Assembly: GCA_049596455.1 (NCBI GenBank) | Contig: JBMYLP010000004.1 | Span: forward strand, 56,644-120,643 | Origin: Flavobacteriaceae bacterium | GTDB taxonomy: Bacteria > Bacteroidota > Bacteroidia > Flavobacteriales > Flavobacteriaceae | Length of the DNA stretch: 64,000 bases | Direction: 5' to 3' | Shown here: piece after piece, positions 33,764-60,101 of the stretch | How the letters are laid out: the number at the start of each line of letters is the position of its first letter | How positions within the stretch are numbered: position 1 is the first letter of the stretch | The notes under the pieces: generated by a model | Seen by the model: the letters and a program-made list of their open reading frames with translations, nothing else | Databases searched by the model: none | What the model was told of the DNA's origin: nothing | Position numbers and translations under genes: made by a program

Positions 33764-34987
33764 ATGCAACATCAAGATTTAGTTCAGATAAGTCAAGAAT
33801 ATGGAAGTCCTCTATATGTGTATGACGCACATGTTATGGAGCAGCAATACACGCGATTGACACGTGCATTTAGTGCCGTACCACATCTTCGCATCAACTA
33901 CGCAGTGAAGGCACTTTCAAACCTCAGCGTATTGAAATGGATGCACCAATTAGGCGCAGGGTTAGATACGGTTTCCATTCAGGAGGTACAATTAGGGCTT
34001 GCTGCAGGCGTGGCACCACACGAAATTATTTATACCCCTAACGGCGTTTCCCTTTCTGAAATTGAGGAAGTGGCGCAATTGGGCGTTCAAATCAATATTG
34101 ACAACTTAGATGTATTGGAACAATTTGGTACAGCGCACCCAAATGTTCCTGTGTGTATTCGAATTAATCCGCACATTATGGCTGGTGGAAACGCAAATAT
34201 CTCCGTGGGGCATATCGATTCAAAATTTGGTATTAGTATTCATCAAATGCCACATCTGTTACGCATCGTAGAAAACACAGGGATGCGCATCAATGGTGTG
34301 CATATGCATACGGGAAGTGATATTTTGGATATTGATGTGTTTTTACATGCTGCTGAAATTCTTTTTGATACGGCAAGGTCGTTTAGCGATTTAGAATTTT
34401 TGGATTTTGGAAGCGGATTTAAAGTCCCTTACAAGCCCGGCGATAATGAAACCAACATTGAGGAATTGGGCGAAAAATTAAGCGAACGCTTCAATGCATT
34501 TTGTACTGAATATGGCAAAGAATTGGTGCTGGCATTTGAGCCTGGGAAATTTTTAGTAAGCCAAGCAGGATATTTTTTAGCGCAAGTGAACTCGGTAAAG
34601 CAAACCACCTCTACGGTGTTTGCACAAGTAAATAGCGGATTCAATCACCTTATTCGCCCGATGCTATACGGAGCTCAACACCGCATTGAAAATATTTCAA
34701 ATCCCAATGGGCGTGAACGTTTTTACTCTGTTGTAGGCTATATCTGCGAAACCGACACCTTTGCCAATAACCGCAAAATTGCGGAAATCAGCGATGGCGA
34801 TGTGTTGTGCTTTCACAATGCCGGTGCATACTGCTTTACTATGGCAAGCAACTACAACTCCCGCTTTAGACCTGCTGAAGTGCTTTGGCACGATGGAGAA
34901 GCAAAGCTTATTCGTAAAGCCGAAAGCTTTAACGACCTGATACAAAACCAAGTGGTATTGGATTTTAAAGAAAAAGCATTGGCTTAA
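33764..34987 (+). CDS. lysA: diaminopimelate decarboxylase
   Basis: Contains the YAVKA PLP-Lys, HMHTGS and EPGKFL motifs. The first ATG is at 33764 and a TACATTTG box lies 15 nt upstream. Confidence 0.9.
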
Positions 34988-36222
34988 CCAATCACTCCGG
35001 AGCCAATACATTCATTTTCCAAGTACCATGCGGCAAATTGTCCTGCTGCAATAGCAGACTGTGGCGCATCAAAAACCAAAAAAACACCTTCTGGTACGGG
35101 ATGTAAGGTAGCCGCTGCCAAAGGTTGGCGGTAACGAATACGCGCTTGTACTCGCGTGGGCTGCTCAGTTGCCAAATCGGGGCGTATCCAATGAACATCT
35201 TCTTGCGCAATCCAAAGCGCACGGCGGTATAGCCCTTGATGATTTTTTCCCTCACCTACATAGATTGTATTTGTTTCCACATCGGTAGCCAACACAAAAA
35301 GTGGCTCAACCGTACCCCCAATCGCCAAGCCTTTTCGTTGCCCTATCGTAAAAAAATGTGCGCCGTTATGCGTTCCAACTTTGTTACCATCGGTTGGGGA
35401 ATAGGTGTATTTTTTAGCCAATCCTTCAGGAGAAGTCTCGCGAGATTCGGCGTACATCGGGTGCGAATTGGGAACTTGAATGATATCTCCTTTTTTGACC
35501 GCAAGTTTTTGTTGTAAAAAGTCGGGAAGGCTTACTTTTCCAATAAAACACAACCCCTGTGAATCTCGTTTTTCAGCGGTAATGAGCCCTTGCTCAGCGG
35601 CAATTTTACGCACCTCGCTTTTTTGTAATCCTCCAATAGGAAACAAGGTTTTTGCCAATTGCGCCTGATTAAGTTGACACAAAAAATAGGATTGGTCTTT
35701 GTTGACATCGGCTCCAGCAAGTAATCTGTAAGTGGGTGCTTCGGCAGGCTCAGCATCCACGGCAGGCTCAGTGTTCGCATTAGTACTTTTTAATGACTGG
35801 GTTGCTGAGCCTGTCGAAGCAACCATTCCCTTTTGACAATAGTGCCCCGTTGCAACAAAATCAGCACCCAACGAAATAGCAATATCTAAAAACACGTCGA
35901 ATTTGATTTCACGATTGCACAACACATCTGGATTTGGAGTGCGCCCACGTTGATATTCAGCAAACATATAATCTACAATGCGCGCTTTATACTGCTCACT
36001 CAAATCCACTGTTTGAAAAGGAATTCCCAGTTTGTCGGCTACAAGCATCGCATCATTACTATCTTCTAACCATGGACATTCATCGGAGAGTGTAACGGAG
36101 TCGTCATGCCAGTTTTTCATAAACAAGCCAATAACCTCATAGCCCTGCTGCAACAACAAATAAGCCGCAACGCTAGAGTCTACGCCTCCCGAAAGTCCAA
36201 CAATGACACGTTTTCCTTGCAT
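34984..36222 (-). CDS. mnmA: tRNA 2-thiouridine(34) synthase MnmA, carrying a 28-aa in-frame insertion
   Basis: Contains the PP-loop [16 protein letters not shown] and NKDQSYFL. The start at 36222 is supported by a TACCTTTG box 4 nt upstream. Confidence 0.92.
35737..35820. repeat. 84-bp palindromic repeat element (17-nt terminal inverted repeats, one arm partly duplicated) embedded in frame in mnmA
   Basis: GCTTCGGCAGGCTCAGC (35738-35754) is 16/17 complementary to GCTGAGCCTGTCGAAGC (35804-35820). CGGCAGGCTCAG is repeated at 35742-35753 and 35760-35771. Confidence 0.7.
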
Positions 36223-36226
36223 GGCA

Positions 36227-36234
36227 CAAAGGTA
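36227..36234 (-). promoter_or_regulatory. -7 box TACCTTTG, 4 nt upstream of the mnmA ATG
   Basis: Exact TAnnTTTG match. Confidence 0.45.
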
Positions 36235-36281
36235 AGTATGTTGATACCGCCCCACCAAACGTGTGGGAATTAACGATTAAT

Positions 36282-59933: not shown

Positions 59934-60041
59934 GGGCACTGAGTTTATCGAAGTGCCCTTCGGCTTTGCTCAGGGGAACTTCGGCTTTGCTCAGGGGAAC
60001 TTCGGCTTTGCTCAGGGGAACTTCGACTTTGCTCAGGGCAC
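59934..60041. repeat. composite repeat: one inverted arm (GGGCACTGAGTTTATCGAAGTGCCC) followed by 4 tandem 21-bp units CTTCGGCTTTGCTCAGGGGAA
   Basis: Units lie at 59958-59978, 59979-59999 and 60000-60020 (identical), and 60021-60040 (degenerate). GGGCAC flanks both ends of the array. Confidence 0.85.
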
Positions 60042-60047
60042 GGAATT

Positions 60048-60081
60048 AAAATCCCTTCACTGTTACAGTTGAGGGATTTTT
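60048..60081 (+). terminator. rho-independent terminator of htpG
   Basis: AAAATCCCT pairs with AGGGATTTT, with an inner ACTG/CAGT helix, and is followed by a T run. Confidence 0.7.
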
Positions 60082-60101
60082 AATACTTTAGGGGTAACCA
60101 A

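Follow-up and report, generated by a model that had tools for sequence, protein, structure and literature searches.

The gene for the tRNA 2-thiouridine synthase MnmA in a Flavobacteriaceae bacterium contains an inverted repeat that leaves its reading frame open, and this raises the questions of where the repeat comes from and how it is accommodated in a conserved enzyme. The evidence, drawn from the 64,000 nt stretch of DNA that contains the gene (here called the window) and from related loci elsewhere, supports the identification of the mnmA insert as a copy of a dispersed palindromic repeat. We think it probable that the block is an in-frame, head-to-head (REPIN-like) doublet of a small hairpin repeat, which was later remodelled.

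The mnmA gene and its variable connector

The gene and the components of the insert are as follows, with coordinates of the window.

34984–36222, minus strand: mnmA coding sequence (tRNA 2-thiouridine synthase), intact and insert-bearing (from the open reading frame, Pfam and PDB)
35731–35829, minus strand: variable connector of 99 nt, 33 codons; 30 nt in insert-free relatives (from ortholog and PDB alignment)
35733–35758, minus strand: hairpin unit 2, stem GGATGC / GCACCC (5/6 paired) around CTGAGCCTGCCGAAG at 35739–35753 (from a core scan)
35757–35774, minus strand: degenerate 18-nt tandem copy of the forward unit, ACT GAG CCT GCC GTG GAT (from repeat comparison)
35775–35799, no strand assigned: spacer between the units, forming the loop of the long hairpin (from folding and comparison with the L006 allele)
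35800–35825, plus strand: hairpin unit 1, stem GGTTGC / GCAACC around the core CTGAGCCTGTCGAAG at 35805–35819 (from an exact cross-phylum core match)

The mnmA open reading frame is listed as 34984–36258 from a TTG at 36258, and the probable start is the ATG at 36222, as in orthologs. Matches to Pfam tRNA_Me_trans, tRNA_Me_trans_M and tRNA_Me_trans_C span the entire protein, and MnmA structures in the PDB are matched at E 4e-91. The connector lies in the catalytic domain between the ATGHYC and YRLLAG segments, where residues 131–162 of the window protein align opposite six residues of 2hma and 9hlv, in agreement with an earlier sequence-only reading of this DNA that known MnmA proteins have only a short connector here. 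That reading also proposed an inserted block of 84 bp; the in-frame insert stands, but the boundaries do not, as the segment that differs is the whole 99-nt connector and the net gain over the 30-nt insert-free form is 69 nt (23 codons). Sequence alignment suggests that the insert occupies a loop and is tolerated as a surface insertion; a structure prediction using 26 close homologs had a mean pLDDT of 56, too poor for loop placement.

Architecture of the inverted repeat

The 17-nt arms described previously, GCTTCGGCAGGCTCAGC (35738–35754) and GCTGAGCCTGTCGAAGC (35804–35820), are inverted repeats, and their extent had been understated: a repeat finder lengthens them to 26 nt (35733–35758 and 35800–35825; 88% complementary with 41 nt between them). 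The reported 18-bp internal tandem is likewise present, with CGGCAGGCTCAG at 35742 and again at 35760, a spacing of 18 nt, and the second occurrence (35760–35771) falls within the degenerate copy. As claimed, the reading frame survives, the mnmA frame being intact on the minus strand. On the coding strand unit 1 is the flipped core and encodes V-A-S-T-G-S-A-T, and the unit 2 core, CTGAGCCTGCCGAAG, is one change from CTGAGCCTGTCGAAG and encodes D-A-E-P-A-E-A-P. Allowing up to two mismatches, the core CTGAGCCTGTCGAAG has three matches in the window against 0.14 expected.

The mRNA was predicted to carry a stable hairpin, and the fold of the coding strand as RNA agrees with this (-41.7 kcal/mol, z -5.0; 0/200 shuffles as good). 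Folding of the plus strand as DNA gives -28.7 kcal/mol (z -6.7), and the hairpin of the L006 allele, from a related lineage, has a folding energy of -41.1 kcal/mol, against -41.7 in the window.

A repeat family in many bacterial phyla

The exact core CTGAGCCTGTCGAAG recurs at hundreds of unrelated loci in many phyla. The family core can be written as CTGAGC[CT]TGTCGAAG, within a unit of about 25 nt that has a short variable stem. Among 135 distinct core matches in viral contigs, at least four of the six flanking positions form Watson-Crick pairs in 46, versus nine in a slid control, and a partner lies within 100 nt in inverted orientation in 23 and in direct orientation in two. A genome scan with a 30-position pattern, for which the calculated chance expectation is ~5e-4 in 596 Gb, finds inverted doublets at at least 120 loci, in hosts that include Bacteroidota, Alpha-, Beta- and Gammaproteobacteria, Actinomycetota, Acidobacteriota, Chloroflexota, Cyanobacteria, Nitrospirota, Spirochaetota, Verrucomicrobia and others. 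It is because the exact core is present at hundreds of loci, and has flanking stems and inverted partners much more often than in controls, that we identify the mnmA insert as a dispersed repeat.

Across 344 family units, 66% have NNTC at positions -7 to -4 (CCTC in 93, GTTC in 53, GCTC in 40, TGTC in 16 and CGTC in 6), and ATC or ATG directly precedes the core in 92; most tails can pair with the tag region (GACGAGG, GATGAGG, GGCGAGG). At -7 to -4 the two window units carry TGGG and GTGG, and are thus without the NNTC tag. Doublets are also present in frame in UvrA, in an alpha-2-macroglobulin and in a cyclase-TPR protein, each with domain matches on both sides. The suggestion that copy lengths might favour multiples of three was not borne out, with residue classes of 54, 33 and 42 among the doublets listed, a difference that is not significant.

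In a nearest-neighbour model the core forms an 11-nt loop, and a strand asymmetry arising from tandem G.A pairs was set aside, the calculated energies (-13.7 vs -12.8 kcal/mol) being unsupportive. No Rfam family reaches its gathering score in the window; lax E-values bring up only plant and animal miRNA hairpin models, far below threshold, and these were rejected. Hammerhead, K-turn and box C/D motifs, considered for the CUGA...GAA pattern, were also rejected, as the core has neither CUGANGA nor a 3-nt bulge. Literature text returned nothing relevant for the core DNA strings or for the peptides LSLSKG, PELVEG and FDKLRANG.

A related locus downstream of htpG

Two further features of the window lie close to htpG.

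59934–59958, plus strand: hairpin unit GGGCAC-TGAGTTTATCGAA-GTGCCC, its core with two changes, 3' of the htpG stop codon (from motif and core scans)
59958–60038, plus strand: tandem array, 3.9 copies of the 21-nt CTTCGGCTTTGCTCAGGGGAA (TRF score 155, 98% matches)

The recurrence of the same arm grammar after htpG, noted in the sequence-only reading, is confirmed by motif counts. CTGAG-N5/6-CGAAG occurs seven times in the 64-kb window versus 0.02 expected, at two loci only (mnmA and 59939–60036), and TGAG-N4-7-CGAA with at least three flanking pairs occurs four times versus 0.07 expected. The hairpin unit is near-identical to the one present in the mnmA genes of relatives, GGCAC-TGAGCTTGTCGAA-GTGCC. 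The array units have the flipped orientation and a 6-nt centre, and the array lies between htpG and a likely terminator; GGGCAC brackets the array, yet it belongs to the stem of the first unit. This unit is 24 kb from the mnmA insert and is the one other related locus within the 64 kb, and none was found in ~130 kb of the relatives' flanks. The 21-mer itself was rejected as a dispersed unit, with exact copies at three distinct loci only, about chance level. One of these three loci corresponds to helix P12 of an RNase P RNA.

Variation among relatives

Related MnmA proteins are 387–448 aa long and all of the length variation is at the connector site, where alleles of 30, 39, 63, 72, 75, 99, 117 and 207 nt are found. 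The relatives' connector DNA contains tandem units of 18 and 36 nt as well as cores that have decayed, the latter in lineages L280 and L281, and the 18-nt period is expanded as TELVEG and AVDAEP units. The insert is lineage-specific: outside the connector, mnmA of the closest relative, L009, is 95.5% identical in nucleotide sequence to that of the window, and its connector is a plain 30 nt. A plain connector of this length is also found in a large clade of 389-aa orthologs, and the window allele is nested inside an insert-free clade in a tree. About 35 of the ~50 differences between the window and L009 flanks are at third codon positions, indicating that mnmA is under purifying selection.

The insert (37/42 identical to that of L007) is not significantly more conserved than its flanks (80% identity; P=0.13), and the comparison of insert with gene conservation gives no indication that a common master copy has recently inserted independently; a search for such a copy in JGI metagenomes with the window-specific spacer found no match. 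The arms are identical at 22/24 positions, versus 10/27 for the spacer when it is compared with that of the L006 allele, and the arms are marginally above the gene average (P=0.04). The spacers of the window and L006 alleles are unrelated in sequence, a divergence that is consistent with either an old shared insertion or independent insertions. The mnmA connector has no target-site duplication, clean insertion boundary or flanking direct repeat. Relative to the insert-free allele the connectors are unalignable and five mismatches are clustered in the first 18 nt downstream, a pattern that fits a replaced tract.

Origin of the insert

We propose that the doublet was tolerated in the codons of the short MnmA connector because it is in frame and free of stop codons, and because the residues that it specifies are small or acidic (S-T-G-S-A-T and A-E-P-A-E-A). 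The repeats would then destabilise the site, with slippage between the 18- and 36-nt direct repeats and hairpin-promoted deletion generating alleles from 39 to 207 nt. The lack of a target-site duplication and the remodelled borders suggest allelic recombination, and the insert-bearing allele most likely moved into the window lineage by homologous recombination between related lineages. The original insertion probably occurred by single-strand hairpin transposition or by template switching. The insert may be neutral for the enzyme, and the element could behave as a selfish or mobile one. The earlier description of a REP/MITE-like selfish element is upheld as regards a dispersed palindromic repeat, its core being present in many phyla, but the hallmarks of a MITE are missing, there being no target-site duplication.

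A more far-reaching version of this proposal has two parts: that the core hairpin is an uncatalogued, near pan-bacterial tagged REP whose 15-nt centre is fixed by a widely conserved host or mobile enzyme, and that the MnmA connector in this Bacteroidota clade is a preferred site, recurrently hit or recombined, that makes the enzyme length-hypervariable. We consider this combination unlikely. Retention of the insert for a function is also improbable, either as a hairpin in the mRNA through which the translation or decay of mnmA is tuned, or as a variable loop under diversifying selection (contingency-type variation, for example). A very stable hairpin is kept in the two diverged window and L006 alleles, the arms are conserved above the spacer, the length variation among close relatives is striking, and Di Nocera et al. 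make the case that many REPs act as RNA elements (PMC3733652). However, many related lineages, including the 389-aa clade, are without the insert, the cores have decayed in L280 and L281, and arm conservation exceeds the gene average only marginally.

A purely local origin, in which slippage and fold-back (template-switch) duplication yielded the inverted repeat as a by-product and no dispersed element was involved, is largely refuted by the family match and has little probability left. Tandem expansion in 18- and 36-nt units is evident at the site, there is no target-site duplication, and the insert-free ACT TCA TCT CAC ACC bears a faint resemblance to the left unit, ACT TCG GCA GGC TCA GCA ACC; however, the exact 15-nt core is common to hundreds of unrelated loci (calculated chance in 64 kb ~2e-4), doublets with the same core are in frame in UvrA and alpha-2-macroglobulin, and a related unit lies after htpG. 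Finally, although fold-back can yield palindromes and the source is a metagenome assembly, a chimeric join or library-made palindrome is refuted by the identity of the 424-aa MnmA product in three assemblies that are independent of one another (one from ENA and two from Logan runs), by homologous inserts of the same architecture in many other samples from JGI, ENA, NCBI and Logan, and by the intact reading frame.

Implications

The dispersed-repeat doublet in mnmA is a clear new example of an intragenic REP/RPE-type insertion, a kind of event that has already been described. It provides a clean and well-sampled natural series of alleles that documents the entry of a palindromic repeat into a conserved enzyme and its subsequent expansion, decay and probable exchange between lineages. 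It also backs an earlier proposal, made for Rickettsia, that new protein loops can arise from such repeats, and extends the proposal to free-living, uncultured Bacteroidota. One 15-nt hairpin core is common to the repeats of very many phyla, and repair genes, uvrA among them, contain it in frame; the questions as to what holds the core constant and what moves it are of interest given that CGTC-type REPs are without a known transposase. Such inserts also give rise to length differences and spurious open reading frames, and annotation and ortholog-clustering pipelines should recognise them.

Comparison with known repeat systems

MITEs such as Correia, Nezha, ERIC and others are short non-autonomous inverted-repeat elements that can give in-frame fusions. 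The mnmA insert is likewise a short inverted-repeat element in frame, but it has neither IS-derived terminal inverted repeats nor a target-site duplication. REPINs and GTAG-type REPs are reportedly mobilised by RAYT transposases (Bertels & Rainey 2011; Nunvar 2010). The insert shares with REPINs the arrangement of two inverted short palindromes and a spacer that form one long hairpin, the presence of dispersed copies and, after htpG, BIME-like tandem or alternating clusters; it differs in that there is no GTAG next to the window units or in the family profile, and in that the family here occurs in many phyla, while any one REPIN-RAYT pair is specific to a lineage.

The closest known system is that of the CGTC-tagged REPs, especially CGTC-2 (Di Nocera, De Gregorio & Rocco 2013, BMC Genomics 14:522; PMC3733652); Neisseria dRS3 and the Rickettsia elements RPE-4 and RPE-6 are members of this superfamily. 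Shared features are a predominance of head-to-head dimers, with the mnmA copy an inverted doublet, a distribution over several phyla with an alphaproteobacterial bias, and intragenic dimers encoding 20–30 residues in repair and tRNA-related genes; in neither case is a dedicated transposase known. CGTC REPs carry a CGTC/TGTC/CCTC-type tag a few bases before the stem, where 66% of the family units here have NNTC. CGTC REPs have a stem of 8–9 bp starting with A.T and a loop of 4–5 nt, and the family here, AT-CCTGAG / CGAAGG-AT around CYTGT, shares the 8-position stem and 5-nt loop only if two G.A mismatches count as stem. The Sulfurovum CGTC-2 peptide RHSELVSGS would back-translate to CGTC-AT-TCTGAA-CTTGT-TTCAGGAT, compared with a typical unit here of CGTC-AT-CCTGAG-CYTGT-CGAAGGAT. 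Among the differences, the tag here usually pairs with a complementary tail whereas theirs is unpaired, their short unpaired tail, mostly CCA, is missing here, and the two window units are without the tag; the core DNA motifs are absent from both the text and the supplements of PMC3733652, and the translations LSLSK, ELVEG, EPVEG and RQAQ from the supplements. The same paper catalogued REP dimers in uvrA, dnaE2, truB and tRNA synthetase genes in 2013 and names Bacteroidetes as one of the phyla in which CGTC repeats occur, so the sequence-only reading overstated the novelty of the insert.

Its parallel with the Rickettsia palindromic elements is apt, as RPE-4 (CGTC-4) and RPE-6 (CGTC-1) have a similar layout within the CGTC superfamily, although their peptides (VIPWLDHGI, VIPAKAGI and SFPRKRES in PMC3733652) are unrelated to the STGSAT and AEPAEA of the mnmA element. 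Elements of the RPE-1 type preserve the reading frame of the conserved housekeeping genes that they occupy (Ogata et al. 2000, summarised in PMC10969869). They are ~100–150 bp long and AT-rich, are found only in Rickettsia and are probably unrelated in sequence to the present repeat, whereas the unit here is ~25 nt and the doublet adds ~70 nt; the copy-number variation at the mnmA site is a further difference. In both systems a palindromic repeat, absent from close orthologs, lies in frame in a conserved gene and encodes an extra peptide segment, presumably at the surface of the protein.

Structure of the mnmA insert

The longest short-range inverted repeat recovered by a repeat finder anywhere in the 64 kb window lies within mnmA, here the minus-strand ORF 34984-36258, as shown by three Pfam MnmA domains that span its product and by solved MnmA structures that match it at E 4e-91. 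The arms, each 26 nt (35733-35758 and 35800-35825), are 88% complementary across a 41-nt gap, a stronger repeat than the sequence-only reading had claimed, and the reported duplication of CGGCAGGCTCAG (12 nt, two occurrences at 18-nt spacing) is borne out. That reading was also right that the block is in frame, but its 84-bp size does not stand: the connector, which lies between ATGHYC and [YH][QR]LLAG, occupies 35731-35829 and exceeds its insert-free counterpart by a net 69 nt. RNA of the coding strand of this block folds at -41.7 kcal/mol (shuffle mean -26; z -5.0), and DNA of the plus strand at -28.7 kcal/mol (z -6.7). Because three independent assemblies give the same protein, residue for residue, an assembly artefact is ruled out. 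The mechanical ORF begins at TTG 36258, although the closest orthologs and the alignment favour ATG 36222; the 12-residue N-terminal extension (36222-36258) is present in some database MnmA proteins (424 and 401 aa).

Each arm is a small hairpin in its own right, a unit of about 25 nt with a 15-nt core and a short stem, and the two inverted units form a doublet. Four hairpins of this form were observed in the window (0.07 expected).

Hairpin units of the window and of related mnmA genes (stem / core / stem)
35800-35825, plus strand: mnmA arm 1, GGTTGC / TGAGCCTGTCGAA / GCAACC
35733-35758, coding strand (minus): mnmA arm 2, GGATGC / TGAGCCTGCCGAA / GCACCC
59934-59958: unit 3' of htpG, GGGCAC / TGAGTTTATCGAA / GTGCCC
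mnmA unit of relatives: GGCAC / TGAGCTTGTCGAA / GTGCC

The plus-strand mnmA arm is an exact match to the core (35805-35819); one position differs in the second arm and two in the htpG unit, in agreement with the earlier proposal that the htpG array is built from the same kind of unit. The array (59934-60043) is bracketed by GGGCAC (59934-59939 and 60036-60041) and lies 3' of the htpG stop codon (59926); beyond it, near 60045-60085, is a distinct T-rich hairpin, apparently the true htpG terminator. An exact 21-nt array unit, CTTCGGCTTTGCTCAGGGGAA, is also the tip of helix P12 in a class-A RNase P RNA (loci L277, 1726-2119, minus strand, and L275) carried on a metagenome contig of 44-45% GC; since this 21-mer is found at only three distinct loci, about the chance level, its occurrence there may be coincidence.

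MnmA residues 131-162 align to just six residues (134-139) of Streptococcus pneumoniae MnmA (2hma, 9hlv), so that, as had been supposed, MnmA normally has a short connector here, which the insert lengthens within the N-terminal catalytic domain. An AlphaFold model from close homologs (mean pLDDT 56; below 50 for residues 126-163) is too poor to show whether the loop faces solvent or lies away from the tRNA. A second segment of ~29 residues (248-276; ~35395-35481) also lacks a counterpart in the solved structures; every close relative has this segment, which carries no repeat signature.

Connector alleles and history of the insert

A protein search identified 120 close MnmA orthologs (75-100% identity, 387-448 aa), and all of their length variation falls between ATGHYC and [YH][QR]LLAG. 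Alignment, proposed earlier as a check of lineage specificity, reveals a large insert-free clade, and the commonest connector has 10 residues from QK to the Y/H of [YH][QR]LLAG (e.g. GEIITSSNTT in 389-aa proteins). Inserts in other orthologs are composed of two kinds of unit in variable copy number, one being S-A-G-S-A-T followed by LLAKN-like residues and the other T-E-L-V-E-G, A-E-P-A-E-A or A-V-D-A-E-P. Connector lengths in the DNA of nine alleles are 30, 30, 39, 63, 72, 75, 99, 99, 117 and 207 nt, that of the window being 99. In the 207-nt allele (L004) a 36-nt tandem unit occurs four times and an 18-nt unit twice, and the alleles of 117 nt (L280) and 63 nt (L281) contain decayed cores. 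L004 and L005 (1537-3152, 4695-6489) are JGI contigs that share one mnmA allele and have unlike neighbouring genes, with bshC products of 483 and 537 aa and a LysM gene that is split (223+367 aa) in one and undivided (597 aa) in the other; frameshifts, misassembly or additional sites prone to indels may account for these differences.

In a neighbour-joining tree with the connector masked, the window MnmA groups with two insert-free orthologs (P0002 and P0003), nested in the large insert-free clade, and the insert-bearing alleles make up three or more further groups. The closest relative, L009, has a plain 30-nt connector that cannot be aligned with that of the window, and the difference is no simple insertion; there is no target-site duplication at the connector in this comparison, and five mismatches fall in the first 18 nt downstream of it, against about one per 30 nt elsewhere. 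The mnmA flanks of the two are 95.5% identical, ~35 of the ~50 differences are at third codon positions, and the gene is under purifying selection. L006 shares the window's architecture and 99-nt length (genes 75% identical overall), with identities of 22/24 in the left unit, 10/27 in the spacer and 28/42 in the right units. The right 42 nt match L007 at 37/42 positions, and the excess over the 80% flank identity is not significant. An old insertion into the connector within this clade is the most economical explanation; it would have been followed by decay, deletion and slippage, with alleles passed on by homologous recombination. Recurrent insertion at one mnmA codon may also have occurred.

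Distribution of the core hairpin

The pattern GCAC-TGAG-N5-CGAA-GTGC is found in 23 stretches of viral contigs, six of which share the free bases C[CT]TGT with mnmA; an inverted partner lies ~20 nt upstream in two of the six. The 15-mer CTGAGC[CT]TGTCGAAG has at least 120 matches in viral contigs; among the matches listed, 46 of 135 distinct ones have at least four of six flanking base pairs (9 in a slid control), partners within 100 nt are inverted for 23 of the 135 and direct for two, and host GC content is 32-71%.

A scan for mnmA-type doublets (the core in flipped orientation, 25-55 nt, then the core) in one genome each from 185,579 bacterial and archaeal species gave at least 120 loci, where ~5e-4 are calculated by chance, and copies exist in other genomes across many bacterial phyla. 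Hosts among the matches listed include Bacteroidota (Tannerellaceae, Bacteroidales, Cytophagales, Chryseobacterium, Fibrella, Leadbetterella, Aquimarina), many Alphaproteobacteria (including Caulobacter, Novosphingobium and Sphingomonas), Beta- and Gammaproteobacteria, Actinomycetota (Plantibacter, Rathayibacter, Gordonia), Acidobacteriota, Chloroflexota, Cyanobacteria, Nitrospirota, Spirochaetota, Verrucomicrobia, Calditrichota, Myxococcota and others. The doublets listed are 56-85 nt long (mode 70-72), and 66% of 344 units listed have NNTC (CCTC, GTTC, GCTC, TGTC, CGTC) at -7 to -4 of the core. The core hairpin repeat, found in both the genome-collection loci (L153-L272) and the viral contigs (L033-L152), generally carries an NNTC tag 3 nt upstream and frequently has an inverted partner. 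No Rfam family matches it, and the core strings were not found in the searchable literature.

Among the doublets listed, 21 of 129 lie in a reading frame that is uninterrupted for 60 or more codons to either side; several of these only precede gene starts in GC-rich DNA, and three are inside real proteins with Pfam domains matched on either side.

Doublets within proteins
L193, 3888-3971: UvrA, Novosphingobium; 84 nt, between UvrA_inter and UvrA_DNA-bind
L174, 5172-5232: alpha-2-macroglobulin, Bacteroidales MAG; in the bMG10 domain
L219, 5365-5421: cyclase-TPR protein; in a linker

The forward core reads LSLSK, a TGA stop or E[PL]VE, and the flipped core LRQAQ, FD[RK]L or ST[GS]S; because one of the three forward frames holds TGA, only some insertions can be coding. 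In GC-rich genomes, such short peptides probably give rise to many ORF predictions that are spurious or extended.

Relationship to known REPs

Di Nocera, De Gregorio and Rocco (2013, PMC3733652) divide REPs into two superfamilies by their tag, GTAG or CGTC, and the CGTC-tagged superfamily is the closest description of the core family. The tag of CGTC REPs is CGTC, TGTC or CCTC, their stems are 8-9 bp and their loops 4-5 nt, and they predominantly form head-to-head dimers; they are biased to Alphaproteobacteria, also occur in Bacteroidetes and other phyla, and have no dedicated transposase. Intragenic copies, often dimers contributing 20-30 residues, are described in uvrA, uvrB, dnaE2, polA, recB, truB and tRNA synthetase genes. 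The parallel with Rickettsia palindromic elements drawn in the sequence-only reading holds, as RPE-4 and RPE-6 are equated with CGTC-4 and CGTC-1 (PMC3733652).

The core strings do not occur in the text or supplements of that paper, and supplement peptides such as VIPAKAGI and DGRVKPGHD belong to other sequence families. The back-translated Sulfurovum CGTC-2 peptide RHSELVSGS appears to have the same layout and CTTGT loop as a typical core unit, and the core family would therefore, on this comparison through the peptide, be either CGTC-2 or a near relative. Unlike CGTC REPs, the window mnmA copy has no tag and the core family no CCA tail. The mnmA doublet has a functional analogue in REPINs with RAYT transposases; the GTAG tag is absent from the core family, and we know of no enzyme that moves the core hairpin.

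The interpretation of a REP-like palindromic doublet tolerated in frame in mnmA is supported, and the insert is a new example of an already known kind of event. Its interest lies in the fine-grained allelic series within a housekeeping enzyme, in how widely a single 15-nt hairpin core is distributed, and in the lack of any known enzyme that moves it.
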